Origin: Bdellovibrionota bacterium
GTDB taxonomy: Bacteria; Bdellovibrionota_C; UBA2361; JAAYZI01
Reading direction: 5' to 3'
NCBI GenBank assembly: GCA_050950765.1
Contig: JBMNIF010000002.1
Location: 480,001 to 544,000 of the forward strand
DNA length: 64,000 nt
The translations under genes were made by a program, and so were the position numbers. Positions 9,731 to 64,000 of this stretch are shown here, piece by piece (position 1 is the first letter of the stretch; each line of letters opens with the position of its first letter). The notes under the pieces were generated by a model that was given only the letters and a program-made list of their open reading frames with translations, had not been told where the DNA came from and ran no database searches.

Positions 9731-9981
9731 ACTTTTTTCATCACAAATTTTCAGCATTTTCTAGTTTTCAAGCGCCACTTTTTTCATCACAAATTTTTAG
9801 CAATATTTATTCTTGAAGTGCCACTTTTTCATCACAAATTTTTAGCATTTTCTAGTTTTTAAGCGCCGTTTTTTTCTTCACAAATTTTCAGCAATATTTA
9901 TTCTTAAAGTGCCGCTTTCTTCTTCACAAATTTTCAGCAATATCTATTCTTAAAATGCCGCTTCCTTCACCATAAATTTTT
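9731..9981. repeat. Degenerate tandem repeat, ~45-46 bp x ~5.5
   Basis: Repeated TTTTTCATCACAAATTTT(C/T)AGCA...AAG(C/T)GCC units. Confidence 0.85.
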
Positions 9982-10005
9982 AAACGCCGATACACCAGAA
10001 AGGGC

Positions 10006-10611
10006 TTATCTTCCAAGCGAAACGCGTCCTGCCAATGCACGAGAAAGGGTCACATCATCCAGATACTCCAACTCTCCCCCTTTAGGCACGCCTTGCGCCG
10101 GACGTGAAACATTAATATTAAAATCCTGCATTAAACGAGCTATATAAAGCGCCGTGGCATCTCCCTCAACAGTAGAAGATGTTGCGATAATCACCTCTTT
10201 TACAACGCCTGCTTCACACCTAGTCATCAACTCTTCTAAACGCATCGAATCAGCACCTTGTCCACGTAAAGGTGCCCACAATCCGTGCAAAACATGATAA
10301 TACCCCTTATATTCACCGGTTCTCTCTACGGAAACCAGATCCACAGGTTTTTCAACAACACACAATAGTGATTCATCCCGTGTCTCATCAGCACAGATAG
10401 GACAAATGTCACTATCAGTTAAAAAAAAGCACCTTTTACACAACTTTATTTCGGAAGCAGCCTTTAATAAAGCTCTAGACATATCTTTTGCTAGATCCTT
10501 TTCATGAACCACAAGGTGATACGCTAAGCGCGTTGCCGACTTCTCTCCGATAGTAGGCAACCTACTTAACTCCGCTATCAACTCCTGCATCTGTTTTGGG
10601 AATATCTGCAT
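10006..10611 (-). CDS. recR: Recombination mediator RecR
   Basis: LPTIGEKSATRLAYHL HhH motif, C4 zinc finger, Toprim EGDATA, ELEYLD. Confidence 0.96.
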   Translation of the reverse strand: MQIFPKQMQELIAELSRLPTIGEKSATRLAYHLVVHEKDLAKDMSRALLKAASEIKLCKRCFFLTDSDICPICADETRDESLLCVVEKPVDLVSVERTGEYKGYYHVLHGLWAPLRGQGADSMRLEELMTRCEAGVVKEVIIATSSTVEGDATALYIARLMQDFNINVSRPAQGVPKGGELEYLDDVTLSRALAGRVSLGR

Positions 10612-19030: not shown

Positions 19031-20595
19031 CCCAAACTTTTCTGTGATTTACGTAACAATAAAGTAACATATTGTTATAACCTATAGAAATTTTTTAAAA
19101 ATTAACAAAAAAGGGGGTTGACTTTTTTGTTGTTTTGACATACGTATTTAGGTATGGGAAAGAAAGCAAAAATACACCCTGATTGGGCAACAAAATATCG
19201 AGAGAAAGGAAAAGAGGTACGTCTTATCAATGGGAGATATTACCTATATAGCTACAGCTATAAGTATGACCCTGAGAGGAAAAGGAGCGTGAAAGTTACT
19301 GGTAAATTACTTGGACGAATTACAGAAGAGGACGGTTTTATACCAAGTGAGAAGAGAAGCCTTGTACCTGCTGTGAATATTAAGTGCAGAGAGTATGGTT
19401 TATCTCAATTTATCCTCAATCAAAAAACAATTATTGAAAGACTTCGGTGTTATTTTCCAGATAAGTGGAAGGCTATTTTGCTGATGTCATACAGCAGGAT
19501 CAAACATTGCTCTCCTATTAAACGCATGAATGATGATTTTGAAAACAGTATGTTGAGTGAAAAACTTAATTTTCTTCTTAATAAGAAAGCTATTCCGAAT
19601 ATTTTGCAATCGATTGGGAAAGATGAATTTGCTCGTTCTGAATATATGAAGAGTTTTATTCATGGAAAAGATTTTTTGTTAATTGATTCTACATTTCTTA
19701 GAACATCTATGAGAAAGTCGAGTCTTGCTAAAGGAGGATATAATAAAGACCATTTTTGGGAAACGCAGGCGAGTTTGCTTTATATTTACTCTAAAAAATT
19801 GCAACAACCAGTCTATTATAGGTTATTGGCTGGGAATATAAGAGATGTAAAAGCTCTATCTTTAACTATCCAAGAATCAGAAATTGGTGATGCTACTATT
19901 ATTGCAGATAAGGGTTTCTATTCAGAGTCTAACGTTAAAGATCTTATAGAGAATAAACTTAGCTTTGTTATTCCATTGCGTAGAAATAGCTCTCTTATAG
20001 ACTATGATGGAATAGAAACAAGCAGGAACGTTATTGAATATAATAAAACGTACTTAAGATATAAAAAATATAAGATTGGGAATGGATTTATATATCTGTT
20101 TAGAGACCCGTTTTTAGCAGGTGAAGAGGAAAATAACTTAGTTTCATTAACAATATCTCATCCAGAAAAATACAATTTAACAGATGTTGATTTAAAAAAA
20201 GTGAGGCTAGGAACTGTTGCATTCTTTTCAAATTTGGACTCATCCGCAGAAGAAATATACACGTTATACAAAATGCGACTATCTATTGAACAATCTTTTG
20301 ATACGTTAAAAACTGTTTTAAAAGCAGATGCTTCATATATGAGTGATGATGATAAATTTCAGGGATGGATGTTCGTGAATCACATAGCAATACAGTGGAG
20401 CTATGAAATATTAAAAACAATAAAAAAACATAAACTTTCGACTTCAATATCATTAGAAGATGCTATCAGAAGGTTATCTGAAATTAAAAAAGTTAGGCTT
20501 GGGGACTCTTGGTATTTAGCCGAGCAAACTAAAGCAGAGCTAAAAATAGCCGAACTGTTACTTACTTAACATACGTAAAAAGGGGAAAGTTTGGG
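19031..20595 (+). mobile_element. Insertion sequence, IS1634-like (IS4 superfamily DDE), 1565 bp
   Basis: Terminal IRs CCCAAACTTT.../...AAAGTTTGGG; 6 bp target duplication TTTAAG at 19025-19030 and 20596-20601; second copy at 62673. Confidence 0.9.
19154..20569 (+). CDS. DDE transposase, IS1634-like
   Basis: LIDST, IADKGFYS and YKMRLSIEQSF (Y-2-R-3-E) motifs. Confidence 0.9.
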   Translation: MGKKAKIHPDWATKYREKGKEVRLINGRYYLYSYSYKYDPERKRSVKVTGKLLGRITEEDGFIPSEKRSLVPAVNIKCREYGLSQFILNQKTIIERLRCYFPDKWKAILLMSYSRIKHCSPIKRMNDDFENSMLSEKLNFLLNKKAIPNILQSIGKDEFARSEYMKSFIHGKDFLLIDSTFLRTSMRKSSLAKGGYNKDHFWETQASLLYIYSKKLQQPVYYRLLAGNIRDVKALSLTIQESEIGDATIIADKGFYSESNVKDLIENKLSFVIPLRRNSSLIDYDGIETSRNVIEYNKTYLRYKKYKIGNGFIYLFRDPFLAGEEENNLVSLTISHPEKYNLTDVDLKKVRLGTVAFFSNLDSSAEEIYTLYKMRLSIEQSFDTLKTVLKADASYMSDDDKFQGWMFVNHIAIQWSYEILKTIKKHKLSTSISLEDAIRRLSEIKKVRLGDSWYLAEQTKAELKIAELLLT

Positions 20596-22228: not shown

Positions 22229-22390
22229 TGTATTCTCTAATCTAGAAAAAAACCTAATTCTGCTAAGACTTATAGCACTTAAGTATACTGTCTTAAAACA
22301 GAAAAAATTAAAACTTGGCGATCTTATTACATATTTAGTGCTACCAAACCCTAACGGAAAAACAATTCCTGACTTCCAAGCCTAAACATT

Positions 22391-22606
22391 TTTTACCTCC
22401 GTAGAAACCTAGCCGATTCGTTTTTCAGTATCAGCCCGTTCAAGCGTCCTTAGAGAGTGGCTCCTTTTACCTCCGTAGAAACCTAGCCGATTCGTTTTTT
22501 AGTATCAGCCCGTTCAGTTGTCCTTAAAGAGTTTTTACCTCCGTTAAGATCTAGCCGATTCGCTTTTTAGTATCAGCCCGTTCTAATGTCTCTGAAGGGT
22601 GGCTCC
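22391..22606 (+). repeat. Dispersed intergenic repeat family, 3 tandem copies
   Basis: Core TTTTACCTCCGTAGAAACCTAGCCGATTCGTTTTT(C/T)AGTATCAGCCCGTTC. Confidence 0.9.
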
Positions 22607-22687
22607 TTTATCTCTAAAGACTTAAAAACAGAACTTAATTTAAAAATATAGTAAAATCAATATGTTAAGCTATTAAATTAGCGGCCC

Positions 22688-35002: not shown

Positions 35003-35766
35003 ATCTCCTCTTCCTCTTTCTTCTCAGCCTTAACCAAAACGCTATTAAGTTTTCCGGCGTAATTAACCTTAGCCGTAACGGTGAACTCCTTAATTTTAAT
35101 ATTAAACTCATCTAGCGCCGCTTTTCTCGCATTTTCAATATCATTCCGACTTTTCTCTCTGACAGACCACCGCTTGGCAGGTGTGGTGCCTTTTTTGCCG
35201 CCACCTGCTTTTGTAGCACGTTTATCTGAACGTAGAGCCTGTAAATCAGGTGTCGCCTGAACTTGTCCTGTACGCTTAGCGTAATACATCTGATCCGAAG
35301 TGATTAATTCAACAGAGCTGAAGTAATCAGAGTTATCCAGATTCTTCATAAAGATGGATATACTTTCATTATTTAAAGCACGCCCTTTTATAGTAAAGAA
35401 TCCATTTTTCTCAATTACTGAACGTAACCAAACGTGTGACGGAACCGCCAGATTCAGATCATCAAAAACCCTAACAGGTCCTATTTTATTCTGATTAACA
35501 CGTGCGATAACCGCTAATTTTTCATTAAGGAGTTTATCTTTTACCTCCAACTCATCAATCTCCTTAGTCTGTTTCTTTAGATGTTCAAACTGGGCCTCTA
35601 AAGTAGCCACCTGTTGCTCTTTTACTTCAATATCTTTAACGATCCCGCCATACATCACATAAAAAGCGGCGAGTAAACAAAGTATGGAAAGAAAGTAACA
35701 AACAAGCCCTATCCTCCAAGCGAGTTTACTATCACACTCCTCTCCAAGAAGGTTTATCTTTATCAT
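34999..35766 (-). CDS. pilN: Type IV pilus PilN
   Basis: MIKINLL PilM-binding motif, TM, VPSHVWL. Confidence 0.9.
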   Translation of the reverse strand: MIKINLLGEECDSKLAWRIGLVCYFLSILCLLAAFYVMYGGIVKDIEVKEQQVATLEAQFEHLKKQTKEIDELEVKDKLLNEKLAVIARVNQNKIGPVRVFDDLNLAVPSHVWLRSVIEKNGFFTIKGRALNNESISIFMKNLDNSDYFSSVELITSDQMYYAKRTGQVQATPDLQALRSDKRATKAGGGKKGTTPAKRWSVREKSRNDIENARKAALDEFNIKIKEFTVTAKVNYAGKLNSVLVKAEKKEEEEI

Positions 35767-35812
35767 TTTCGACCCCGTTTAATTTCACTCACTCCGGCAT
35801 AACTTGCAGATC

Positions 35813-40214: not shown

Positions 40215-40355
40215 CACTCGCTAGGGACAGTAGAACGGGCTGATACTAAAAAATGAATTGGCTAGATATTTACGGAGGTTAAAAACACTCGCTAGGGACA
40301 GTAGAACGGGCTGATACTAAAAAATGAATTAGTTAGGTTTTCACGAAGGTAAAAA
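40215..40355 (-). repeat. Dispersed intergenic repeat family, 2 tandem copies in inverted orientation
   Basis: GAACGGGCTGATACTAAAAAATGAATTGGCTAG...ACGGAGGTTAAAA is the reverse complement of the 22391 core. Confidence 0.9.
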
Positions 40356-44229: not shown

Positions 44230-47200
44230 CTAAAAAACACCTCCGTAAGCCGTTATAATCTCTCCCCACGGAGTTTTTGATTGAGAAATTTCAGCTGGAT
44301 CTCCGTTAAAAATCACCTTTCCGCCACTTTCTCCCGATCCAAGCCCAAGTTCAACCAAATGATCACACCCTAAAATAAAATCCCTATCGTGCTCTATCAC
44401 TAAAACAGAGTGCCCCTGCGCCGTTAAACGTCTAAGGATCTTTATCAATCGTCCTACATCAAAACGGTGCAGCCCTGTGGTCGGCTCGTCAAGAATATAC
44501 AAAACACGCCCTTTACGCCTCTTTGAAAGTTCAGAAACAAGCTTTAACCTCTGACTCTCTCCACCTGAAAGGGTGACACTACTCTGCCCTAAGGAGAGAT
44601 AACCGAGACCTATCTCACAAGCAGTGTGTAGGATGTGGTTAATTTTATAATGATTGGCAAATAATACAGATGCCTCTTCTAACGTCATCTTTAAAACATC
44701 TACGATATTACGCTCCAAGAAACGAACTGATTTAACCTCCTCCGAAAAGCGATCTCCGTGACAATCTTCACACTCAATTGTGGCATCAGCCAGAAAACTC
44801 ATCTTCAATTTAATATCACCACGCCCTTCACAAGTTTTGCACCGCCCCTTACCGGTATTGTAAGAGAAGAACGAGGCATCCCAACCACGAGCTTGAGCTT
44901 CGATAGTTTTTGCAAAAAGACGTCTAATCTCATTCAAAATGCCGAGATACGAAGCAGGTGTTGAACGGGGATTAGCACCGATCGGTTTCTGATCAACCGT
45001 TACGATCCGTTCAAGCGCAGAGCCTAAAGTTATGACCGTATCTCCATATTTAAATCTAGATCTATCAGCGGAAGATGCGCCGTTCTCTAAAACCTCTTTA
45101 ACAATACCGTTTACAAGCGAGCTCTTTCCCGCTCCAGAAACACCAGCGATCGTAACAAAAGATTCAAGTGGAAAAGTTAAATTAAGGTCGTGAATATTAT
45201 TTTTATTACCGTTACTGATAGTAAGCACAGGCTTCTCTTTTTTATCCGCAGTCACTTCACATTCAGGAACGATCTCCCCCCTTAAAGCAGCAGCTGTAAT
45301 AGATTTTTTACTTTTAATAAATTGTGCAAGTGGTAACGACTCTACTATCTTCCCACCATTACGCCCCGCTTCAGGACCAACATCGATAACGTGATCAGCC
45401 GTTAAAATACTCTCCTCATCATGCTCAATCACAATAACCGAATTACCGTTATCTTTTAGACGCTGCATCTCTTTTAAAACTTTACGATTATCATAAGGGT
45501 GTAATCCGGCGCTCGGTTCATCAAAGATATATAAAACTCCACTAAGTGGAGAGCCCATCGCTGTCGCCAGTCTTAAACGTTGCAACTCTCCACTTGAAAG
45601 GGTTGAGCAGTCTCTATCAAGTGTTAAATAATCAAGCCCAAGAGAGATAAGGGCATCAAGCTTTGCAAAAAGTTCACGCAAAATATTTTCTTTAATAAGG
45701 GTAGCTGCTGCATTGAATTGAAAATCAGAGAGGAATGCTTTTAATTTTGAAGGTGTCAGTAAACAGGCTTGATGAATATTTTTTTCACCTAACCTTAAAT
45801 TAGCAGCAACACTGTTGATGCGTGCACCGTTACAACTTTTACAAACATTGCCGTGTTCGTCCTGACCATATCCGCCACAAGTTGGACACACACCACGCTT
45901 TGAATTAAAGGAGAGGTCTTCGGGGTCAGCTTTAAAAAAACCCCGCTTACAGATAGGACAAGTCCTTTCCGTAGAATAGATCGTATCCTTTCCGTCATAA
46001 ACGATTAAAGTACCGTTCCCAAGACTTAGCGCTTGTGTAACGCACTCTCTGATCACCTCAAAAGGTATTTTTTTAGGATCAAACGATCCCACAACGTATT
46101 CTATGGTGTGTGGTTTAGTTTTTGATAAATCATCTACAACTGAAGATGCTTTTACAAAGACGTTATCAACTCGCACTTCGTTTAAATCAATAGCAACAGC
46201 ACGTTCCAGCACACCACGATGCGCCCCTTTTTTCTGTTTTATAACAGGTGCTAGAACTTTAATCCGATCTTTGTACCCCATCACCTCGCGAGCGATATCT
46301 TCCGCTTCTAACGGCGAAATACGGCGATCTGGATGATCTGGACAATACTGTAACGCCGTTTTTGCATATAAGAGGCGTAGATAATTATAAGCTTCAGACA
46401 TACTTGCTATTGTAGAAAGGCGTGACGGTTGAAAGGTGTGTTGATATACACAAACTGTCGGCAAGATATTTGAAATACTACTTACATCTGGACGTTTTAA
46501 TTCCTTAATAAATTGTCGTGCATAAGGAGAAAGACAATCAAGATAACGTCTCTGCCCCTCCGCATATAAGATATCTTTTGCAATGGAAGATTTTCCGGAA
46601 CCAGAAACCCCACATAACGCCACTATCTTATTTAACGGGATATCGATATCAATATTTTGCAGGTTATGCTCCTTAGCTCCTCTAATACCGATAAAAGCAG
46701 GTGCTTCAAACTTCTGCTTAACTTTCTTTAATGCTTTACTCTTTTTGCAATGACTCTCGTTACAATCGGTATTGTTATGATCGTTATAAAAACGGCGTAA
46801 ATGTTGTGCCGTTAAAGAAGGTGGCTCTTCATCTTGCACAAAATCTAACGGAGTCCCCACCCTCACCACCTCTCCACCGTGTTCACCCGCTGCAGGCCCC
46901 AGATCGATAATCCAATCTGCAGCAGAGATAAGACTTAAGTTGTGCTCCACTACCAATAAAGAGTGACCGCGATCACGCAAAGTATAAAAAAGCTCAATTA
47001 ACCTACTTACATCCTTATTGTGCAGACCTGTTGTCGGCTCATCAAAGATTAAAAGCGAGTGGCTCTGATCTGTTTTTTGTAAAAATGGAATGAGTTTTAA
47101 ACGTTGAGCTTCACCCCCTGAAAGTTCACTTAAGGGGTGTCCCAAACTTAAATGCCCCAAACCTAAAGTTTCCAACATTTCACACGTTTGCCAGATAGCA

Positions 47201-49623
47201 AAGTCTTCTTTAAAAAATTCTTTACAGGTGCTGACCGTCATCTGCAGAAAATCATCAACATTTTTACCTTTATATTGAACCTCTAAAACTATCTCTTTAA
47301 ATCTCTTACCGAGACAACTTTCACACGGCAGATAAACATCACTTAAAAACTGCATATCTTCTCTGACAAATCCAGCACCTTTACAAGCAGGGCATCTGCC
47401 TCCATCAACGTTAAAAGAGAAAGCTGACTTAGAGAGTTTGCGAATTTGCGCATCTTCCGTAGCTGCTAAGACACTTCTAATAGTCTCCCAGATCTTACAA
47501 TAAGTGGCGATATTAGCGCGTGGTGCTTTAGTCAGTGCTGATTGATCAACTAAAAAGAGGCGGTCTATACCTTCAAAACCTTCAACTTTAGTAAAAGACG
47601 GCAAACCGTTCTGCAAAGCTTCGTACTCATACTTAATAACTTCCTGTACTAACGTACTTTTGCCACTTCCAGAAACGCCGCTAATACAAACAAAAGCTTG
47701 TAACGGTATTTCAAGATCAATATCTTTTAAATTTCTTGCGCTTGCTCCCTTAATCTTTAACGTTTTTTCGAAGGGTGTAATTTTTTTCTGAAAATGTAAA
47801 AGTTCTCCGATAGAAGAGCTCCACTCAGAAGCACTTCCACAATAAACAACCTCTCCGCCCTTTTCTCCACCTTCCGGTCCAAGCTCTATAATATTATCAG
47901 CCGCCGCAATACAATCCGGATCGTGCTCCACAAGTAAGACGCTATTACCACGCCTCTGCAACTCTCTAATAGAATCAAGTAATCTATCAGTATCGTGCGG
48001 ATGTAATCCGACCGAAGGTTCATCCAGCACAAATTGAGTTGAGGTCAGGTGGCTGCCGAGAGCAGTTACAAGATTAACACGTTGAGTCTCTCCGCCGGAA
48101 AGGGTTCGCGCCTGCCTATCCAGTGTTAAATACGATAGCCCTAATTTTGAAAGAAGAGAGACACGGCTGATAACACCTTCAAAAACATCATTCAGATAAC
48201 GGCTATCACCTGCCCGTGAAAGCACATCAGAAGACGTTGTTTGCAGATAAGTACTGTGCAAATTTTTTAACCAGATAAGTAGTTTTTCTATGGAGAGACT
48301 CCAAAGGTCTGAAATACAGACACCGTTAATGCGGTACGCTAAGGCTTCACGACGTAAACGGGTACCGTTACAAGAGGGGCATATCATCTCCGTTCTATAA
48401 CGTGCCAAGAAAACACGTACGTGCATCTTATAACTTTTTCGTTCTACCTTTTTAAACCAAGTTCTAAGACCGAGATAGCTTTTTGATTTCGCATCAAAGA
48501 TTAGGTCCCGTTCATGCTGCGCCAGATCTTTCCAAGCAACTTTTGTTGAAATACCGTTTTCTTTACAAAACGTCAGGAGTTTTAAGTAATACCGTCTTGT
48601 TGATGGCGTACTCCAACACTGCACCGCCCCTTCTTCAATGGTGAGGTTGTGATCGGGAACACACTTAAGGGGATCCACAGTTAAAATTTTTCCAAAACCT
48701 TGACACTTGGCACAACTACCATTTGGATGATTATATGAGAAAAGAGAGGGTTGTGCATTCGGCAATACAACCTCTCCCTCCGTACAACGTGGATGGTTGT
48801 AAAAATAGTGGGTTTCTAAGGGAGACTTATCTAGATTTTTTTGTGCTTTATTATTTACAATGCGTAAGAACGGTCTGTAATTTTGTACGATCTCTGCTAT
48901 AACAACCGTACCGTGCGCAATACCGAAAGCTTGCTCCAAAGAATCTTGCACCTGTTTAGCAGAAAAGTTATTGGGTCTTATTCTATCCAGTAATAAGAGA
49001 AAGTTATTACCGTTTGCCTTTAAGTTAAGATCATTCAGATCTTCCAGATGTAAAATATCTGCACTAGCAACATCAATACACCGACTAAAACCGAGTGTGA
49101 TAAGGCGCTCAACCTCTTTTTTAAACTGTTTTTTATCACTGCTAAGAAAGGGGGTGCAGATATAGAAAGTGCTCTCTGGCTTTAACTTTTGCCACTTACA
49201 CAACAACTCCGTCAGATCTGCACTACTTTTACCTTCCAACTCAATGCCGCATTCAAGACAGTACGGCTTTGCCAAATTAGCCCAAAGGATCTTTAAATAA
49301 TCAATGATATCTGTCATCGAACCAACGGTCGATCTTGAACTGGTAACCTTAGTGCGCTGCTGAATAGCGATAGCAGCCCTGACATTTTTCAACATGTCCA
49401 CATCAGGCTTTTTAATCTTATCTAAAAATTGTCTAGTATACGGGGAAAATGTTTCAATAAAGCGTCTCTGCCCTTCTGCAAAAACGGTATCAAACGCCAG
49501 TGATGATTTGCCTGATCCGGAAAGCCCCGTTACAACGGTTAAGGTATCGTGCTCAATCTCAAGGTTTAGGTGTTTGAGGTTGTTTTCATGCGCATTTATG
49601 ATCTTAAGAGAGTGTGTATCCAA
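44230..49623 (-). CDS. uvrA: Double-length excinuclease ABC subunit A
   Basis: Four Walker A motifs (GLSGSGKS, GVSGSGKS x2, GVSGAGKS), four signature/DEP sets, two AEGQRR motifs, Zn fingers. Confidence 0.95.
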   Translation of the reverse strand: MDTHSLKIINAHENNLKHLNLEIEHDTLTVVTGLSGSGKSSLAFDTVFAEGQRRFIETFSPYTRQFLDKIKKPDVDMLKNVRAAIAIQQRTKVTSSRSTVGSMTDIIDYLKILWANLAKPYCLECGIELEGKSSADLTELLCKWQKLKPESTFYICTPFLSSDKKQFKKEVERLITLGFSRCIDVASADILHLEDLNDLNLKANGNNFLLLLDRIRPNNFSAKQVQDSLEQAFGIAHGTVVIAEIVQNYRPFLRIVNNKAQKNLDKSPLETHYFYNHPRCTEGEVVLPNAQPSLFSYNHPNGSCAKCQGFGKILTVDPLKCVPDHNLTIEEGAVQCWSTPSTRRYYLKLLTFCKENGISTKVAWKDLAQHERDLIFDAKSKSYLGLRTWFKKVERKSYKMHVRVFLARYRTEMICPSCNGTRLRREALAYRINGVCISDLWSLSIEKLLIWLKNLHSTYLQTTSSDVLSRAGDSRYLNDVFEGVISRVSLLSKLGLSYLTLDRQARTLSGGETQRVNLVTALGSHLTSTQFVLDEPSVGLHPHDTDRLLDSIRELQRRGNSVLLVEHDPDCIAAADNIIELGPEGGEKGGEVVYCGSASEWSSSIGELLHFQKKITPFEKTLKIKGASARNLKDIDLEIPLQAFVCISGVSGSGKSTLVQEVIKYEYEALQNGLPSFTKVEGFEGIDRLFLVDQSALTKAPRANIATYCKIWETIRSVLAATEDAQIRKLSKSAFSFNVDGGRCPACKGAGFVREDMQFLSDVYLPCESCLGKRFKEIVLEVQYKGKNVDDFLQMTVSTCKEFFKEDFAIWQTCEMLETLGLGHLSLGHPLSELSGGEAQRLKLIPFLQKTDQSHSLLIFDEPTTGLHNKDVSRLIELFYTLRDRGHSLLVVEHNLSLISAADWIIDLGPAAGEHGGEVVRVGTPLDFVQDEEPPSLTAQHLRRFYNDHNNTDCNESHCKKSKALKKVKQKFEAPAFIGIRGAKEHNLQNIDIDIPLNKIVALCGVSGSGKSSIAKDILYAEGQRRYLDCLSPYARQFIKELKRPDVSSISNILPTVCVYQHTFQPSRLSTIASMSEAYNYLRLLYAKTALQYCPDHPDRRISPLEAEDIAREVMGYKDRIKVLAPVIKQKKGAHRGVLERAVAIDLNEVRVDNVFVKASSVVDDLSKTKPHTIEYVVGSFDPKKIPFEVIRECVTQALSLGNGTLIVYDGKDTIYSTERTCPICKRGFFKADPEDLSFNSKRGVCPTCGGYGQDEHGNVCKSCNGARINSVAANLRLGEKNIHQACLLTPSKLKAFLSDFQFNAAATLIKENILRELFAKLDALISLGLDYLTLDRDCSTLSSGELQRLRLATAMGSPLSGVLYIFDEPSAGLHPYDNRKVLKEMQRLKDNGNSVIVIEHDEESILTADHVIDVGPEAGRNGGKIVESLPLAQFIKSKKSITAAALRGEIVPECEVTADKKEKPVLTISNGNKNNIHDLNLTFPLESFVTIAGVSGAGKSSLVNGIVKEVLENGASSADRSRFKYGDTVITLGSALERIVTVDQKPIGANPRSTPASYLGILNEIRRLFAKTIEAQARGWDASFFSYNTGKGRCKTCEGRGDIKLKMSFLADATIECEDCHGDRFSEEVKSVRFLERNIVDVLKMTLEEASVLFANHYKINHILHTACEIGLGYLSLGQSSVTLSGGESQRLKLVSELSKRRKGRVLYILDEPTTGLHRFDVGRLIKILRRLTAQGHSVLVIEHDRDFILGCDHLVELGLGSGESGGKVIFNGDPAEISQSKTPWGEIITAYGGVF

Positions 49624-53299: not shown

Positions 53300-53314
53300 T
53301 CTTTTTCCCTCACC

Positions 53315-53377
53315 TCCAAGCCTAGACGCTTTTAACCTCCGTTAAGATCTAGCCGATTCGTTCCGCAAGTATCAGCC
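53315..53377 (+). repeat. Dispersed intergenic repeat family, single truncated copy
   Basis: TTTAACCTCCGTTAAGATCTAGCCGATTCG...AGTATCAGCC. Confidence 0.8.
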
Positions 53378-54298: not shown

Positions 54299-54793
54299 TT
54301 ATCGATCAGGATACCGTTGAGATCTACTCTTATATTTACTACCGTTTCCGAAGCGTCCACCGGAACTTTTTGCAGGACGTGCTGGATGTTTTTTCTGCGG
54401 CTGCGCCAACTGTTCATGCGACGTTAAAACTGCGCTCTGCCTTGATTCATCAATAGGGAAGGGTAAGTTACGGGGTTGGGACTCATTCCAGAGGTCTTCT
54501 TCAAGTGCAAATTCAATAATTGAAGCGACGTGATCAAGTGGTACAAGTGTAACCTTACCTTCCATGCGATGTCCTTCCTTACCCGTGATCTGTTTTCCCC
54601 TGACGAACTTAGTATCTGCGATAGTAACGATCTCCGGCTCTGTCATGCCGTACCAATGAGAAGATGATTTTGTGTAAAGCATAATAACGGAACCAAGCTT
54701 TACTTCACCTTCTTCCGGAGCTGCCTTTGCAACCTTAGCGGCTGTTTTTGTAGCGGTTTTAGTACCTGTTTTTGCTGTCTTTGCGGCTACCAT
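54299..54793 (-). CDS. Hypothetical protein with Lys/Ala/Thr-rich N-terminus
   Basis: 164 aa ORF with low-complexity basic termini. Confidence 0.65.
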   Translation of the reverse strand: MVAAKTAKTGTKTATKTAAKVAKAAPEEGEVKLGSVIMLYTKSSSHWYGMTEPEIVTIADTKFVRGKQITGKEGHRMEGKVTLVPLDHVASIIEFALEEDLWNESQPRNLPFPIDESRQSAVLTSHEQLAQPQKKHPARPAKSSGGRFGNGSKYKSRSQRYPDR

Positions 54794-54964
54794 AATATCT
54801 GCCTTATTAAATTATTACTAAATTATCACTATTATTTTTATCATTAAATTTATTTCCTCAAGTAGGTAGTGAGGAGTATCAAGATAGGTTTATCGTATAA
54901 GAAGTTATTGAAAATTGAAAGATCTTTGAATTATGCTTTTAATCTAATCAATCTACACCACCTC

Positions 54965-56237
54965 TTAACGTTTTTTTACAAGGAAAAACATTCCTTTGCT
55001 CTGATTATAAGATATCTACTTATAATCGATAAGGTATAGCAGGGAAGGCTCAAACTTTAGATGCGACAGCTGCACTAAGTACAGCCGTCGCATTTCACAT
55101 GGTGTAAGAACTTATCTTCCCTGCTACCGTTCCTTGTTAGGATTCGCATTCCTGCTCGAAGTTAGCACACTCCTTTAAGAGAGTTGCAAGCTCCTTAACT
55201 ACGGAAGGCTTAAGTTTCTTAAGCACTTCTGCATCAATAGTGCGTAGAGCTTTTAAGATCTTTACAAAAGGCTGCAGTACATCTTCTGCCACCTCTTCCG
55301 CAAACTTATTCGCAGAAGTATCTTTGTTGCCGTCTTTAGGAAAAGCTGACGATAGCTTTTTTCCGCAATCCATCAAGGATTCGATTTCAGCCGCGAAGCA
55401 TTCCCCCATATTTAAAGAGGAAAGCTTTTTAAGCAACATAACGAAGTGGCGAATACACTCCAGCAAAGCATCTACAACTTTCCTAGTTGAACTATTTGTA
55501 GGCGCTGAGAGAGCGTCTAAAATCGTCCCTCTAAAACCTTGTAGTGCTTCTGCCCACTTCTCAAAAAGTCCATTCAGAAGAACTCCGCCGTCCTTCTCCT
55601 TTTTCCCTTTTTTGAGAAAATCGAGTATACCTTGAAGAGCGCTATTCAGCTCTTTCTGTGTCACGTTCGGATCTTTCGCTTGTTCAATGATCATTGCGAT
55701 AGAGACTTTGAACCAACAATCACGTTTGGCAATACGTGCAGCTTTGCGCGCATCATCATATGCGCTTTGCCAAGGGGGGGTAGTGATGCTCATAAGAGCA
55801 CCTCCTTTCTATGTTGTAAAACAACCCACAATTTAACTTCGCTCGGTTCGGTAAACCTAGCAAAGTAGGCAGAAAACCTTCTTTATCAACCTTTATCACA
55901 ACACACGTGAAAAGTTTGATATTCTCCCTGCCTTGATGAGGTTAGGAAAACTCTAAAACCATCAAGACAGGAGTTATACCCTTTACATCTACCCTTTAAA
56001 TTGTAAAAAACGGATGCTACTACGTGCTGCTATATGCTATTTACATTAGCAAAATAGTACTTTCGTAAATTAGAACACCTTAACGAGATAAGACACTATA
56101 TTTAAAGCGTCTTTAAACAGTTCCTTATTGTAATCAAGAAAACACCTTTTTTTCAAGTCAGGAAGGGCTTGAAAGGGCTTACCTTTTATTTTGCCTTAAA
56201 TATTTTTGATTGCGTAAAAGGGGTATTTTTAAAGGAA
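54965..56237 (-). repeat. Unit 1 of a tandem ~1.3 kb cassette-like duplication
   Basis: 87 bp identical block (54965-55051 = 56270-56356) and 52 bp identical block (55959-56010 = 57296-57347). Confidence 0.9.
55137..55793 (-). CDS. Uncharacterised helical protein (cassette 1)
   Basis: AGGAGG RBS; MSI...ES; remote paralog of 56443-57168. Confidence 0.8.
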   Translation of the reverse strand: MSITTPPWQSAYDDARKAARIAKRDCWFKVSIAMIIEQAKDPNVTQKELNSALQGILDFLKKGKKEKDGGVLLNGLFEKWAEALQGFRGTILDALSAPTNSSTRKVVDALLECIRHFVMLLKKLSSLNMGECFAAEIESLMDCGKKLSSAFPKDGNKDTSANKFAEEVAEDVLQPFVKILKALRTIDAEVLKKLKPSVVKELATLLKECANFEQECES

Positions 56238-56269
56238 AAAAGCACTATGCTTTTAAGTCATAAGATCTT

Positions 56270-57552
56270 TTAACGTTTTTTTACAAGGAAAAACATTCCT
56301 TTGCTCTGATTATAAGATATCTACTTATAATCGATAAGGTATAGCAGGGAAGGCTCTCAAACTTTAGTTAGGTGCGGCAAGTCACATCTGCAACTTGCCG
56401 CACTTTCCGAAGTGCGAAAACCTCTTCTGCTATCCCTTTTTTTTAGGATTCGCTGGAGTCGTCGTCAGGATCTTCGTAGTCTTCCAATAGATCCTTGAGT
56501 CTCGCTTCCGCGTTGCCTGTGGGATCTTCTACCCCATTAGCTTCACGAAGATACGCTTCAAGACACAAAACGAAACGAAGCATATCTTCCGAGGCATCTA
56601 CGAATTTCTTAACTATAGCAGGATCCGCCGTTTTAAACACGCGTTTCTCGCTGAACAAAGCGCTTAAGAGCCTCTTGAGAGGTTCTACCGTACCTTTTAA
56701 TTCGGTATCCAGAAGCTTCTTAAGCGAAGTTCCTCCCTGATCGCCTTCGCAGTTTTCGAAGAAGCTTTTATACAGCTCCCCATGATAATCCAGCAAGCCT
56801 TTGATCCTCTTTATTGCACTATTCGTGCAGCCTTCTCTCTCAATTACGATTGAGAGAGCATAATCGAAGATCTCCAGCACAGCATCTAAGAACTTCTCGA
56901 CTACTGGAAGAAGGTCAGGCGCATTAAGCGTTTTTTTGTCAGCGAATACAACTTTCCTGATAATTACGCCGAGCTTCTTCAGCTCTTCCGTCATCGCCTT
57001 AAAAAGTCCGTTTACAAGGGCGGTTTCGTTTTCGCTCTTAGCTAACGCTTCGAGGAAGATTGAAATCAATACTTGCAGAGATTTCGTTAGATCGTACGCA
57101 GCTTGAAAAATTCGAGCCTTGTGACACTTACAATTAGGGTCATAAAAACCCTGCTTTTCGATGCTCATATGAGCACCTCCTTCCATAAATTACTTCACTC
57201 GGTAAACCAAGCAAAGAAGACAGAAAACCTTTCACTTCGGTGAAAGTTTAAAGTTTGATATTCCCTGCCTTGATGAAGTTAGAAAAACTCTAAAGCCATC
57301 AAGACAGGAGTTATACCCTTTACATCTACCCTTTAAATTGTAAAAAAACGCACACCCCCTATATATTATCATATCTTAACAAAATAGTGCTTCCGTAAAC
57401 TAGATAAGTCACCTTATTTGGAACATTTTTTAAAATCTCCTCAACTTATTAAATGAGGGAGATCTTTTTTAAGCGCCAAGACCTTGAAAGGATTTACTTT
57501 TAAGTGAGTGTTAAATATCTTCTAATTGTGTCAAAATCATACTTTAAAGGAA
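56270..57552 (-). repeat. Unit 2 of the tandem cassette-like duplication
   Basis: Same conserved flanking blocks as unit 1. Confidence 0.9.
56443..57168 (-). CDS. Uncharacterised helical protein (cassette 2), 241 aa
   Basis: AGGAGG RBS places the start at 57168 (MSIEKQ); shares NGLF and other patches with the cassette 1 protein. Confidence 0.8.
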   Translation of the reverse strand: MSIEKQGFYDPNCKCHKARIFQAAYDLTKSLQVLISIFLEALAKSENETALVNGLFKAMTEELKKLGVIIRKVVFADKKTLNAPDLLPVVEKFLDAVLEIFDYALSIVIEREGCTNSAIKRIKGLLDYHGELYKSFFENCEGDQGGTSLKKLLDTELKGTVEPLKRLLSALFSEKRVFKTADPAIVKKFVDASEDMLRFVLCLEAYLREANGVEDPTGNAEARLKDLLEDYEDPDDDSSES

Positions 57553-57675
57553 CAACGTACGGTCTAAAAACAGACTTTACACCTTCCAGATTGTGATAAT
57601 TTGAATTATTGAAGAGAGCAAGGCGTGCAGCAACCTACTTCGCTTTTATTTTAGAGAGATATAAGGATTTTAATT

Positions 57676-58560
57676 ATGGGAACAGAGAGACATATAAAGA
57701 TCAGGGTCGGCTTAGCTGAAATGTTAAAAGGCGGTGTAATTATGGATGTAGTTACTCCGGAACAGGCTAAGATTGCAGAAAATGCCGGTGCTGCTGCCGT
57801 GATGGCGTTAGAAAGGGTTCCGGCTGATATTAGGAGAGATGGCGGTGTAGCCAGAATGGCTTCAATAGACGTTATTGAAGGGATTAAAAGAGTTGTAACT
57901 ATTCCGGTTATGGCGAAGGTCAGGATCGGTCATTTTGTTGAAGCTCAAGTTTTGCAAGCCTTAGGGGTGGATTTTATAGATGAAAGCGAGGTGCTAACCC
58001 CTGCCGATGATAAATTACACATCGATAAGTTCGCCTTTGATACGCCTTTTGTCTGCGGCGCTAGAGATTTAGGCGAAGCATTAAGACGTATCAGTGAGGG
58101 TGCTGCTATGATTAGAACGAAGGGTGAGGCTGGATCCGGCAACATCGTTGAAGCAGTGCGACATATGCGTACCGTCATGAGTCAGATTAAAGCGTTAAAA
58201 GGCTTAGATGATGCTGAGTTAGTGGTGCGTGCTAAAGAGTTGGGAGCATCATACGACCTTCTTAAAATCGTAGCGGATCAGGGGAAACTACCCGTTCCAA
58301 ACTTTGCAGCGGGAGGAGTGGCAACACCGGCTGACGCCGCTTTGATGATGCAGCTTGGTGCTGAATCTGTTTTTGTCGGTTCCGGCATCTTTAAATCAGA
58401 AGATCCAGAAGCTAGAGCAAAAGCCATTGTAAAAGCCGTAGCACACTATAACGATCCGCAAGTATTGTTAGATGTTTCACGTGGATTACGTGATGCTATG
58501 CACGGAATTGAGATCTCTACCTTAAAGCCAGAAGAAAAACTTCAAGAGCGAGGGTGGTAG
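57676..58560 (+). CDS. pdxS: Pyridoxal 5'-phosphate synthase lyase subunit
   Basis: [44 protein letters not shown]. Confidence 0.97.
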
Positions 58561-61507: not shown

Positions 61508-61640
61508 AAGTTATCTTTTAACACAGAACCTCTCCTCGTTCATCTCCTTTACTGACTTCTCTTTCAACTAAATTTCTCCAGTGTGAAAAATCTAAGATAT
61601 TGGAATATAAGAAGAAGTTTTTAAGTATTTTTATCCACTG

Positions 61641-61775
61641 GGGACAGCAGAACGGGCTAATACTGAAAACTGAATTGGCTAGTTTTCTACGAAGGTTAAA
61701 GTGCCGCCCTTCAGGGACGATTGAGCGGTCTGCTACTAAAAACTGAATTAGCTAGATCTTTACGAAGGTCAAAAA
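61641..61775 (-). repeat. Dispersed intergenic repeat family, 2 degenerate tandem copies
   Basis: GGGACAGCAGAACGGGCTAATACTGAAAACTGAATTGGCTAG...ACGAAGGTTAAA and a second diverged copy. Confidence 0.85.
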
Positions 61776-62672: not shown

Positions 62673-64000
62673 CCCAAACTTTTCTGTGATTTACGTAACA
62701 ATAAAGTAACATATTGTTATAACCTATAGAAATTTTTTAAAAATTAACAAAAAAGGGGGTTGACTTTTTTGTTGTTTTGACATACGTATTTAGGTATGGG
62801 AAAGAAAGCAAAAATACACCCTGATTGGGCAACAAAATATCGAGAGAAAGGAAAAGAGGTACGTCTTATCAATGGGAGATATTACCTATATAGCTACAGC
62901 TATAAGTATGACCCTGAGAGGAAAAGGAGCGTGAAAGTTACTGGTAAATTACTTGGACGAATTACAGAAGAGGACGGTTTTATACCAAGTGAGAAGAGAA
63001 GCCTTGTACCTGCTGTGAATATTAAGTGCAGAGAGTATGGTTTATCTCAATTTATCCTCAATCAAAAAACAATTATTGAAAGACTTCGGTGTTATTTTCC
63101 AGATAAGTGGAAGGCTATTTTGCTGATGTCATACAGCAGGATCAAACATTGCTCTCCTATTAAACGCATGAATGATGATTTTGAAAACAGTATGTTGAGT
63201 GAAAAACTTAATTTTCTTCTTAATAAGAAAGCTATTCCGAATATTTTGCAATCGATTGGGAAAGATGAATTTGCTCGTTCTGAATATATGAAGAGTTTTA
63301 TTCATGGAAAAGATTTTTTGTTAATTGATTCTACATTTCTTAGAACATCTATGAGAAAGTCGAGTCTTGCTAAAGGAGGATATAATAAAGACCATTTTTG
63401 GGAAACGCAGGCGAGTTTGCTTTATATTTACTCTAAAAAATTGCAACAACCAGTCTATTATAGGTTATTGGCTGGGAATATAAGAGATGTAAAAGCTCTA
63501 TCTTTAACTATCCAAGAATCAGAAATTGGTGATGCTACTATTATTGCAGATAAGGGTTTCTATTCAGAGTCTAACGTTAAAGATCTTATAGAGAATAAAC
63601 TTAGCTTTGTTATTCCATTGCGTAGAAATAGCTCTCTTATAGACTATGATGGAATAGAAACAAGCAGGAACGTTATTGAATATAATAAAACGTACTTAAG
63701 ATATAAAAAATATAAGATTGGGAATGGATTTATATATCTGTTTAGAGACCCGTTTTTAGCAGGTGAAGAGGAAAATAACTTAGTTTCATTAACAATATCT
63801 CATCCAGAAAAATACAATTTAACAGATGTTGATTTAAAAAAAGTGAGGCTAGGAACTGTTGCATTCTTTTCAAATTTGGACTCATCCGCAGAAGAAATAT
63901 ACACGTTATACAAAATGCGACTATCTATTGAACAATCTTTTGATACGTTAAAAACTGTTTTAAAAGCAGATGCTTCATATATGAGTGATGATGATAAATT
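62673..64000 (+). mobile_element. Second copy of the IS1634-like element, cut by the window end
   Basis: Reads the same as the sequence from 19031 onward; transposase ATG at 62796. Confidence 0.92.
62796..64000 (+). CDS. DDE transposase, partial at window edge
   Basis: Same sequence as the 19154 ORF. Confidence 0.9.
   Translation, partial: MGKKAKIHPDWATKYREKGKEVRLINGRYYLYSYSYKYDPERKRSVKVTGKLLGRITEEDGFIPSEKRSLVPAVNIKCREYGLSQFILNQKTIIERLRCYFPDKWKAILLMSYSRIKHCSPIKRMNDDFENSMLSEKLNFLLNKKAIPNILQSIGKDEFARSEYMKSFIHGKDFLLIDSTFLRTSMRKSSLAKGGYNKDHFWETQASLLYIYSKKLQQPVYYRLLAGNIRDVKALSLTIQESEIGDATIIADKGFYSESNVKDLIENKLSFVIPLRRNSSLIDYDGIETSRNVIEYNKTYLRYKKYKIGNGFIYLFRDPFLAGEEENNLVSLTISHPEKYNLTDVDLKKVRLGTVAFFSNLDSSAEEIYTLYKMRLSIEQSFDTLKTVLKADASYMSDDDK

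Follow-up and report, generated by a model that had tools for sequence, protein, structure and literature searches.

Within a 64,000-nucleotide stretch of a Bdellovibrionota bacterium genome (G000:C2:480001-544000, hereafter the window, from whose start locus positions are counted), two open reading frames (ORFs) lie head to tail on the minus strand, each set in a frame of leader, hairpins and tail that is partly identical between the two, and each encoding a protein that has diverged strongly from the other. The pattern is real: it is more than a one-off conversion, and it is found genome-wide. Our preferred reading, to which we give a probability of about 0.6, is that of a chromosomal contingency array in which RecA-type recombination would swap diversifying genes between conserved frames. 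Ordinary recombination, and not a new jumping element, seems to have built what resembles an arms-race arsenal of swappable genes. This reading draws on the uneven conservation of the two units, on a mosaic allele and an alternative insert, and on the recurrence of the layout elsewhere in the genome.

Uneven conservation within a tandem array

The array comprises two minus-strand units, with a gene of 164 amino acids (aa) to the left and pdxS to the right.

54962..56266, minus strand: unit 1 (leader, ORF1, 3' hairpin, tail), by sequence comparison
56267..57560 (upstream edge approximate), minus strand: unit 2 (leader, ORF2, 3' hairpin, tail), by sequence comparison
55137..55793, minus strand: ORF1 (P0001), 218 aa, soluble helical orphan, isoelectric point 8.1, no family match
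56443..57168, minus strand: ORF2 (P0002), 241 aa, a helical-hairpin module of ~100 aa present twice (residues 51-127 and 152-229), acidic tail, isoelectric point 4.9
54965..55051 and 56270..56356, no strand: 87-bp identical tail, copies 1 and 2, longest exact match
55959..56010 and 57296..57347, minus strand: 52-bp identical upstream block, copies 1 and 2, exact match
56040..56262, minus strand: unit 1 distal leader, with 69% identity to 57365-57560 and a sigma-70-like consensus match at 56156-56127
54965..54991, also 56270-56296, minus strand: 8-codon mini-ORF (MFFLVKKR) without a good ribosome-binding site; its stop codon coincides exactly with the end of the identical tail
54299..54793, minus strand: left neighbour, 164 aa, without Pfam family, by Pfam search
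57676..58560, plus strand: right neighbour pdxS (SOR/SNZ), divergent, by Pfam search

The sequence-only reading had singled out this locus for its two exact flank blocks, and both were reproduced as longest exact matches, of 87 and 52 bp, the latter lying within an 86-bp block identical at 83 of 86 positions. The common ribosome-binding site/start and stop contexts, the ORF lengths and the three short patches of protein similarity that it quoted are likewise as claimed. Along the unit, identity amounts to 69% in the distal leader, 97% in the upstream block, 84% in the proximal leader, 60% in the ORF, 71% in the variable arm of the 3' hairpin and 99% in the tail, with 55-58% in shuffled controls; the ORF alignment scores 194 against 144 ± 13 after shuffling. 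The frame between the two ORFs takes up ~650 bp, and the tail copies are direct repeats 1305 bp apart. Since an ORF that has not been homogenised lies between two identical blocks, at least two conversion events, or strong selection, are needed; a single local gene conversion, which the sequence-only reading had listed among the findings that would refute it, does not account for identical blocks separated in register by such an ORF.

The window sequence was reproduced without differences by contigs of two sequencing runs not flagged as its source, X7 and X10. One X7 contig (record 29, 56158-56722) spans the junction of ORF2, tail and leader, and one from X10 (record 3, 54730-55051) spans the left edge; as such contigs match across both the unit junction and the left edge, the array is not an assembly artefact.

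A family of diverging paralogous proteins

The two proteins had been described as aligning only in patches. The patches exist, yet the proteins are homologous over ~170 aa (25% identity over 170 aa, E=1e-5, a score reached by 0 of 1000 shuffles), and are diverged paralogues and not unrelated payloads. An internal repeat of ~100 aa is significant in ORF2 (matched by 0 of 500 shuffles) and in P0003, an outside relative described below (1/500), and not in ORF1 (111/500). None of these proteins of 218-332 aa has a transmembrane stretch, the maximal 19-residue hydropathy being 1.2-1.4. The better structure model, with a predicted local distance difference test score (pLDDT) of 62 and a predicted template-modelling score of 0.64, contains two helical hairpins.

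No match of weight was found for the payload proteins in Pfam, PADLOC, PHROGs, NCBIfam or PDB sequences, none in Foldseek at E 0.001 and none at 0.8 or more in the feature atlas; a profile built on the ~100-aa module found nothing. Fold searches returned only generic helical bundles (Z 9.4 for a pLDDT-50 model and 8.0 for the pLDDT-62 model), which excludes no family. The proteins match no known family, membership of one being a finding that would have counted against the sequence-only reading. Relatives at the DNA or protein level were found in 0 of 60 genomes and, credibly, in 0 of 90 genomes, and none appeared in scans of metagenome, viral or genome contigs, from which near-identical records may be absent, nor in phages or plasmids. 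Two candidates were rejected: P0004 (E 2e-13), a butterfly repeat protein whose score sums 11 repeats, and a match in genome G042, interrupted by four stops.

A search covering 1.84 billion representatives and 5.8 billion clusters yielded a single real outside relative, P0003, a protein of 332 aa carried on three short-read contigs. P0003 is a mosaic, agreeing with ORF2 at 43 positions in its C-terminal 45 residues and at 88 in the preceding 161 (Fisher p 5e-8).

Three clocks appear to run in the array: a neutral one in the distal leader (69%) and at four-fold sites, a fast one at first and second codon positions, and a slow one in the upstream block and tail (97% and 99%). When ORF1 is set against ORF2, 13 of 20 four-fold sites in conserved residues are identical, close to the value of the distal leader, and first and second codon positions agree at 82/193 and 111/193. 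By a rough hand estimate this amounts to ~0.5 synonymous versus 0.6-1.1 non-synonymous changes per site, values that stem from 20 four-fold sites in one alignment. Such values suggest proteins diverging at or above the neutral rate, and possibly positive selection.

Replacement and mosaicism among strains

Strain data consisted of contigs from four (X7, X10, X14 and X15) of the 20 runs holding the stretch. In X15, an RNA run from another study, one contig of 552 nt passes from the ORF2 leader directly to the stop context and trailer of ORF2 and skips 733 nt; it places an insert of at most ~420 nt in the ORF2 frame, and full ORF2 is present in the run too. The X15 joint and record 19 were taken as one contig because their depth is equal. 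X15 contigs cover the ORFs and not the distal leaders, a pattern that gives a weak hint of transcription. X14, a DNA run from another study and habitat, carries on one contig a unit-2-like leader followed by 26 other letters and then by the unit-1 distal leader and a tail. It also holds two trailer versions; an insertion in the loop of the inner stem occurs in one, and a change at position 56403 in one of them is common to the X15 contig. ORF2 in X14 differs from the window by 2 letters in 759; together with the replaced and mosaic frames, this indicates variation by replacement and mosaicism, not by point hypermutation. ORF1 is without cover in X14, which at a depth of ~5 is no proof of absence. 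Allele sizes in view are 218, 241, 332 and at most ~140 aa. As for the neighbourhood, the left neighbour was not found in five relatives, and the sole genome of the same family is without a pdxS match.

The mosaic P0003, the X15 insert, the mosaic leader of X14 and the rough excess or parity of non-synonymous change all agree with the core of the sequence-only reading, namely fixed, structured ends around an exchangeable, diversifying payload.

The same layout recurs in the genome

We compared adjacent same-strand gene pairs throughout the genome. Both flanks are similar in 20 of 3622 pairs, and in 14 of the 3622, forming six arrays with this locus included, the encoded proteins are in addition at most 31% identical; of the six pairs dropped from the 20, five have an identity of at least 38%, and the sixth, of low identity, adjoins a long gene rich in repeats. 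Two weaker arrays, G and H, and three members were added by hand from one-flank lists, and one 280-aa membrane protein at array E was omitted. Arrays other than the present one are located as follows.

C1:347595-351781
C2:625577-628583
C2:1025630-1029430
C2:1157589-1160240
C3:77118-78978
C3:567040-568776
C1:34079-35592

All 23 array ORFs lie at or above the 91st percentile of 836 background genes for G+C content at third codon positions (GC3) and at or below the 7th for codon adaptation, with normal G+C at first and second positions (GC1 and GC2). A strong Shine-Dalgarno sequence precedes 17 of the 23, versus 160 of 827 background genes. The 21 array ORFs outside this locus have no Pfam match, and the ten that were looked up belong to clusters of 1-3 sequences. 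We found no credible protein similarity between arrays, nor even within arrays A, E, G and H, and a leader motif common to the eight arrays does no better than random sets.

These counts bear on the leading competing explanation: an orphan gene under weak constraint would have been duplicated in tandem long ago, its flanks being held by purifying selection and incidental conversion and its strain differences being neutral copy-number noise. That only two copies exist, without marks of mobility, and that two of the four runs show the same alleles would suit it. It must however invoke at least two separate conversion tracts that both spared the ORF, and it sits poorly with the finding that conservation is inverted in this way in six arrays, compared with 28 paralogue pairs of the ordinary kind, whose flanks are dissimilar, with the lack of real protein similarity within arrays A, E, G and H, and with the atypical codon use shared by all 23 ORFs. 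We consider it unlikely.

Several observations concern single arrays. The leaders of three units at C1:347595-350650 (L086) agree exactly in a start codon and in the first seven codons, a stretch that is fused to the ORF in one unit and forms a short peptide in two; two of the trailers bear a strong ribosome-binding site and a start codon. The leader stem of array H (L085; C1:34651-34734 and 35724-35806) resembles the 5' hairpin of our locus, ranking 5 and 12 of 2061, and shows one compensatory pair; it is a weak lead, a model of it having found no further copy in 31 genomes. Isolated high-GC3 ORFs at C1:50910-51650, C1:353590-354576, C2:49213-51489, C2:195002-195382 and C3:682565-686838 may be single members of the array class.

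Folded control elements of the frame

Each unit holds three predicted hairpins, and a palindrome lies in the tail.

55927..55971, minus strand: 5' leader hairpin of unit 1, folding z -4.0
57264..57308, minus strand: 5' leader hairpin of unit 2, folding z -5.65
55785..55807, minus strand: start-codon hairpin of unit 1, a Shine-Dalgarno sequence and a 7-bp hairpin whose loop and stem are spanned by the start codon, -10.9 kcal/mol
57160..57182, minus strand: start-codon hairpin of unit 2, -10.2 kcal/mol
55037..55126, minus strand: long 3' hairpin, unit 1, with a 15-bp inner stem at 55061-55093, z -8.0 on the mRNA strand and -5.0 on the other
56342..56432, minus strand: long 3' hairpin, unit 2, with a 14-bp inner stem of different sequence at 56372-56403, z -9.35 versus -5.75
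55003..55027 and 56308..56332, no strand: perfect 9-7-9 palindrome with TATAAT on each strand, by sequence scan

The leader hairpin is 45 nt long in each unit. The start-codon hairpin is predicted to take up the end of the strong Shine-Dalgarno sequence as well, and an equally strong fold of the start context occurs in 2 of 1705 cases in the genome, ORF1 among them (ORF2 is listed under an upstream ATG). The first three codons are common to ORF1 and ORF2 presumably because this hairpin needs them, the single differing base being in the loop; the MGT start of P0003 is codon-compatible with it, as are 54 of 1706 genes. After the stop codon comes the 3' hairpin of ~90 nt, and both trailers are more stable than 250 of 250 sampled background trailers. 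Between the units, their inner stems differ in sequence and agree in shape. Each of the four hairpins tested folds better as mRNA than as the opposite strand, with more G-U pairs.

The tail comprises the 3' arm of the long hairpin and the 9-7-9 palindrome, which occurs nowhere else in the genome when one mismatch is allowed and may be an operator or a pair of back-to-back -10 boxes. Within the 52-bp upstream block, a putative promoter, lie a direct repeat of 8 bp (55977-55997) and a hexamer resembling a -10 box. Neither sigma-28 nor sigma-54 consensus was found in the leader of either unit. Pairing between leader and trailer ends falls in the same register in both units and does not exceed chance (76 and 252 of 1000 shuffles), and Rfam gave two sub-threshold chance matches only. 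Folding of the whole mRNA into an Obelisk-like rod was rejected, the ORF bodies folding like background (z -0.78 versus -0.47). Promoter, operator, antisense-RNA and RNA roles of these elements are proposed here from sequence and predicted folds.

A different use of the same elements would be an RNA antitoxin: the tail palindrome would drive a convergent antisense RNA of ~105 nt across the 3' hairpin, with the inner stem as specificity determinant and the start hairpin silencing a toxic protein. On the plus strand a TATAAT lies ~7 nt before the hairpin base and, in unit 2, a T run follows the hairpin; the start codon is predicted to be sequestered; and convergent antitoxins and Shine-Dalgarno sequestration are described for TxpA/RatA, Fst and AapA (PMC8167048). 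Unit 1, by contrast, is without a clean T run, the hairpins fold better on the mRNA strand, pairing of leader and trailer is not beyond chance, no Rfam match comes near threshold, and soluble proteins of 218-332 aa differ from type I toxins, which are typically hydrophobic and <60 aa. We regard this use of the frame as decidedly improbable.

No sign of a dedicated mobilising system

The sequence-only reading also considered a non-autonomous element mobilised in trans, an idea that the data do not support. Only two copies of the unit exist in this genome, which it had listed among the findings against it, with no dispersed copies; no target duplication was seen at the unit edges, and no copy of the locus in phages, plasmids or viral contigs. 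In the 94% complete genome no reverse transcriptase was found, an RVT_1 search whose control gave signal having returned no match, and no serine resolvase either. Three tyrosine recombinases are encoded, all at least 64 kb from the locus; their TIGR02249 scores of 61, 33 and 20 bits fall far short of the cut-off (265), and they are not integron integrases. A search with an attC consensus found no core-box pair within 220 nt of either stop. Diversity-generating retroelements (DGRs) and retrons find no counterpart either, neither a reverse transcriptase nor a second copy of either ORF end having been found, and two copies fall short of the many dispersed ones of REP/RAYT elements or miniature inverted-repeat transposable elements (MITEs).

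The most specific variant would be an integron-like or non-autonomous cassette moved in trans by a recombinase acting at the 9-7-9 palindrome, which has what we take to be the shape of a tyrosine-recombinase core site. The two palindromes stand in direct orientation at a distance of 1305 bp, the genome encodes three tyrosine recombinases and the GC3 of the payloads looks foreign. Nevertheless, there are two sites for two units and not three, identity extends 38 and 24 bp past the site, and the unit edge falls at 56266/56267 and not in the spacer; with the missing attC pair, target duplication, reverse transcriptase, serine resolvase and dispersed, phage, plasmid or viral copies, and recombinases far below the integron-integrase cut-off, such a cassette is very improbable.

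Proposed mechanism and points that weigh against it

In the contingency-array reading, the array would arise by local duplication, each unit being a self-contained gene with promoter region, folded leader, start hairpin and long 3' hairpin, and therefore probably under tight post-transcriptional control. The protein would diverge at or above the neutral rate; the upstream block and tail would stay near-identical because they are functional and are the usual crossover sites. Homologous recombination at these blocks and at the ORF 3' end would add, drop and replace payloads between copies and strains. RecA is present in the genome, and no dedicated mobilising enzyme would be needed.

Several points weigh against this reading. 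X7 and X10 carry the window's alleles, and the near-unchanged ORF2 of X14 argues against ongoing point hypermutation. The X15 insert may be a deletion form, a paralogue or something unrelated, and P0003 was compared at the protein level. Among the joints listed, none marks a circle or an empty site, in contigs that lose rare forms, and no genus-level relative is available to polarise events; the best GyrB matches of the genome are only ~55% identical. The substitution estimate is small and alignment-dependent, local duplication alone leaves the high GC3 of the payloads unexplained, the consensus promoter scan does not call the upstream block and finds no more sites than in shuffles, and nothing ties the payload proteins to a target.

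Comparison with known systems

The closest parallel is given by the PeSL cassettes of T4-type phages, orphan ORFs between conserved promoter and stem-loop blocks (PMC2839356), where block recombination inserts, deletes and replaces ORFs and no site-specific recombinase is shown (PMC2839356; PMC4122927). Conserved stem-loop and promoter-like blocks, of putative promoter activity, also flank orphan ORFs here, and ORF replacement between close relatives is seen in the X15 and X14 contigs. The present locus differs in lying on a bacterial chromosome, on a 1.25-Mb contig with housekeeping neighbours and no phage match, and in its longer frames (~650 bp), separate upstream and downstream blocks, frame sequence proper to each array and paralogous payloads; PeSL mini-circle joints are absent from the joints listed here, which come from contigs only.

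In the esaG/tipC tandem immunity arrays of type VII secretion, homology blocks at the gene ends and in the 3' intergenic region enclose a variable middle, with gain and loss by homologous recombination (PMC9484751). Tandem paralogues that recombine at terminal and intergenic homology blocks are the likeness; esaG and tipC, however, are known immunity families that adjoin the toxin locus and carry their conserved block within the gene, whereas our locus has unrelated neighbours, no cognate toxin, 25% identity and a long structured leader per gene. The lpl genes of Staphylococcus aureus, whose 3' part is described as travelling with the downstream intergenic region (PMC2568036), show a 3' linkage like that suggested by P0003, but recombine at a central coding block, and the blocks here are non-coding. 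TxpA/RatA, Fst/RNAII and AapA/IsoA combine a sequestered start region, folded untranslated regions (UTRs) and convergent RNA (PMC8167048). The predicted sequestered start, long folded UTRs and possible convergent RNA of our locus recall these type I toxin-antitoxin modules, from which it differs by its large soluble proteins and non-significant end-to-end pairing.

A last comparison concerns our locus and the terminal reassortment of type III effectors. In that model, which Stavrinides is said to have put forward in 2006, a fixed promoter and 5' end are reportedly reused by different coding bodies. The present arrangement resembles this, in a genome that likewise carries type III export genes, but only three N-terminal residues are common here, and a conserved 3' frame is not known to be part of the model.

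Judged by its sequence features, the locus belongs to none of the PeSL, esaG/tipC and lpl families, nor can it be classed with integrons, DGRs, retrons or classical type I modules. The sequence-only reading had proposed an undescribed system. That holds in part: the protein family and the genome-wide recurrence of the layout appear undescribed, and our literature search, outside which most subscription papers lay, turned up no account of the family, nor of arrays of this kind in the lineage. The novelty of the mechanism was overstated, since recombination between conserved flanks is known for PeSLs and esaG/tipC.

Other features of the window

Elsewhere in the window, two copies of a DDE transposase element (19031-20569 and 62673-64000) are identical over 1328 bp. 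Dispersed repeat modules of ~70 nt occur at 22383-22609, 40215-40355, 53308-53362 and 61632-61774, and a tandem array of 46-nt units at 9734-10007. An ORF of 1797 aa (44230-49623) resembles, by eye, a doubled UvrA.

Possible functions and type III export

That the payloads are conflict proteins is a guess. Two versions of it are equally tentative, a contact-delivered effector and an intracellular immunity or defence protein. The genome encodes one flagellar and two further type III export sets, with three SctV/FlhA, three SctR/FliP and three SctJ/FliF genes, two of the SctV genes matching hrcV best, below its cut-off, and no needle or translocon gene identified; the two non-flagellar sets would make the effector version plausible. 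No type VI and no VirB4 match was found in the genome. No array adjoins the type III clusters, the nearest being 272 kb from this locus. Residues 2-16 of the array ORFs are less hydrophobic (0.24 versus 0.32, p 0.002) and nominally more polar (0.39 versus 0.32, p 0.17), in a comparison with uncertain starts and members that are not independent.

One SctV-like gene lies inside a Tad cluster (L193, L194; C3:601265-616592) with a TadA ATPase gene, Ser/Thr kinase genes and two similar genes, one of them scored CpaB. This cluster recalls the Kil/T3SS* pairing, which a 2025 review calls restricted to Cystobacterinae and for which delivery of toxic effectors is still hypothesised (PMC12428579). Other non-flagellar type III genes (SctJ, SctQ-like, SctV, SctR) are scattered over C1:16252-21917, C2:261146-268434 and C5:53342-57281, two of these clusters beside sigma-factor-like genes.

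A bolder proposal, which we advance as speculative and rather unlikely, is that the six to eight arrays form a genome-wide, recombination-shuffled arsenal. Its ~23 orphan proteins, unrelated to one another and each enclosed by an RNA-structured frame of its own, would be the cargo of Tad-linked and stand-alone type III machines in a contact-dependent predator or parasite, and leader and start hairpin would hold back translation until contact is made. Secreted payloads would offer a short, testable list of candidates for the open question of Kil/T3SS* cargo. If they serve immunity or defence, conserved flanks around Pfam-less, high-GC3 ORFs would be a cheap finder of conflict genes in uncultured lineages. 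On the contingency-array reading, PeSL-like shuffling of self-contained orphan genes would be a recurring design on a bacterial chromosome, here with a new two-module helical family.

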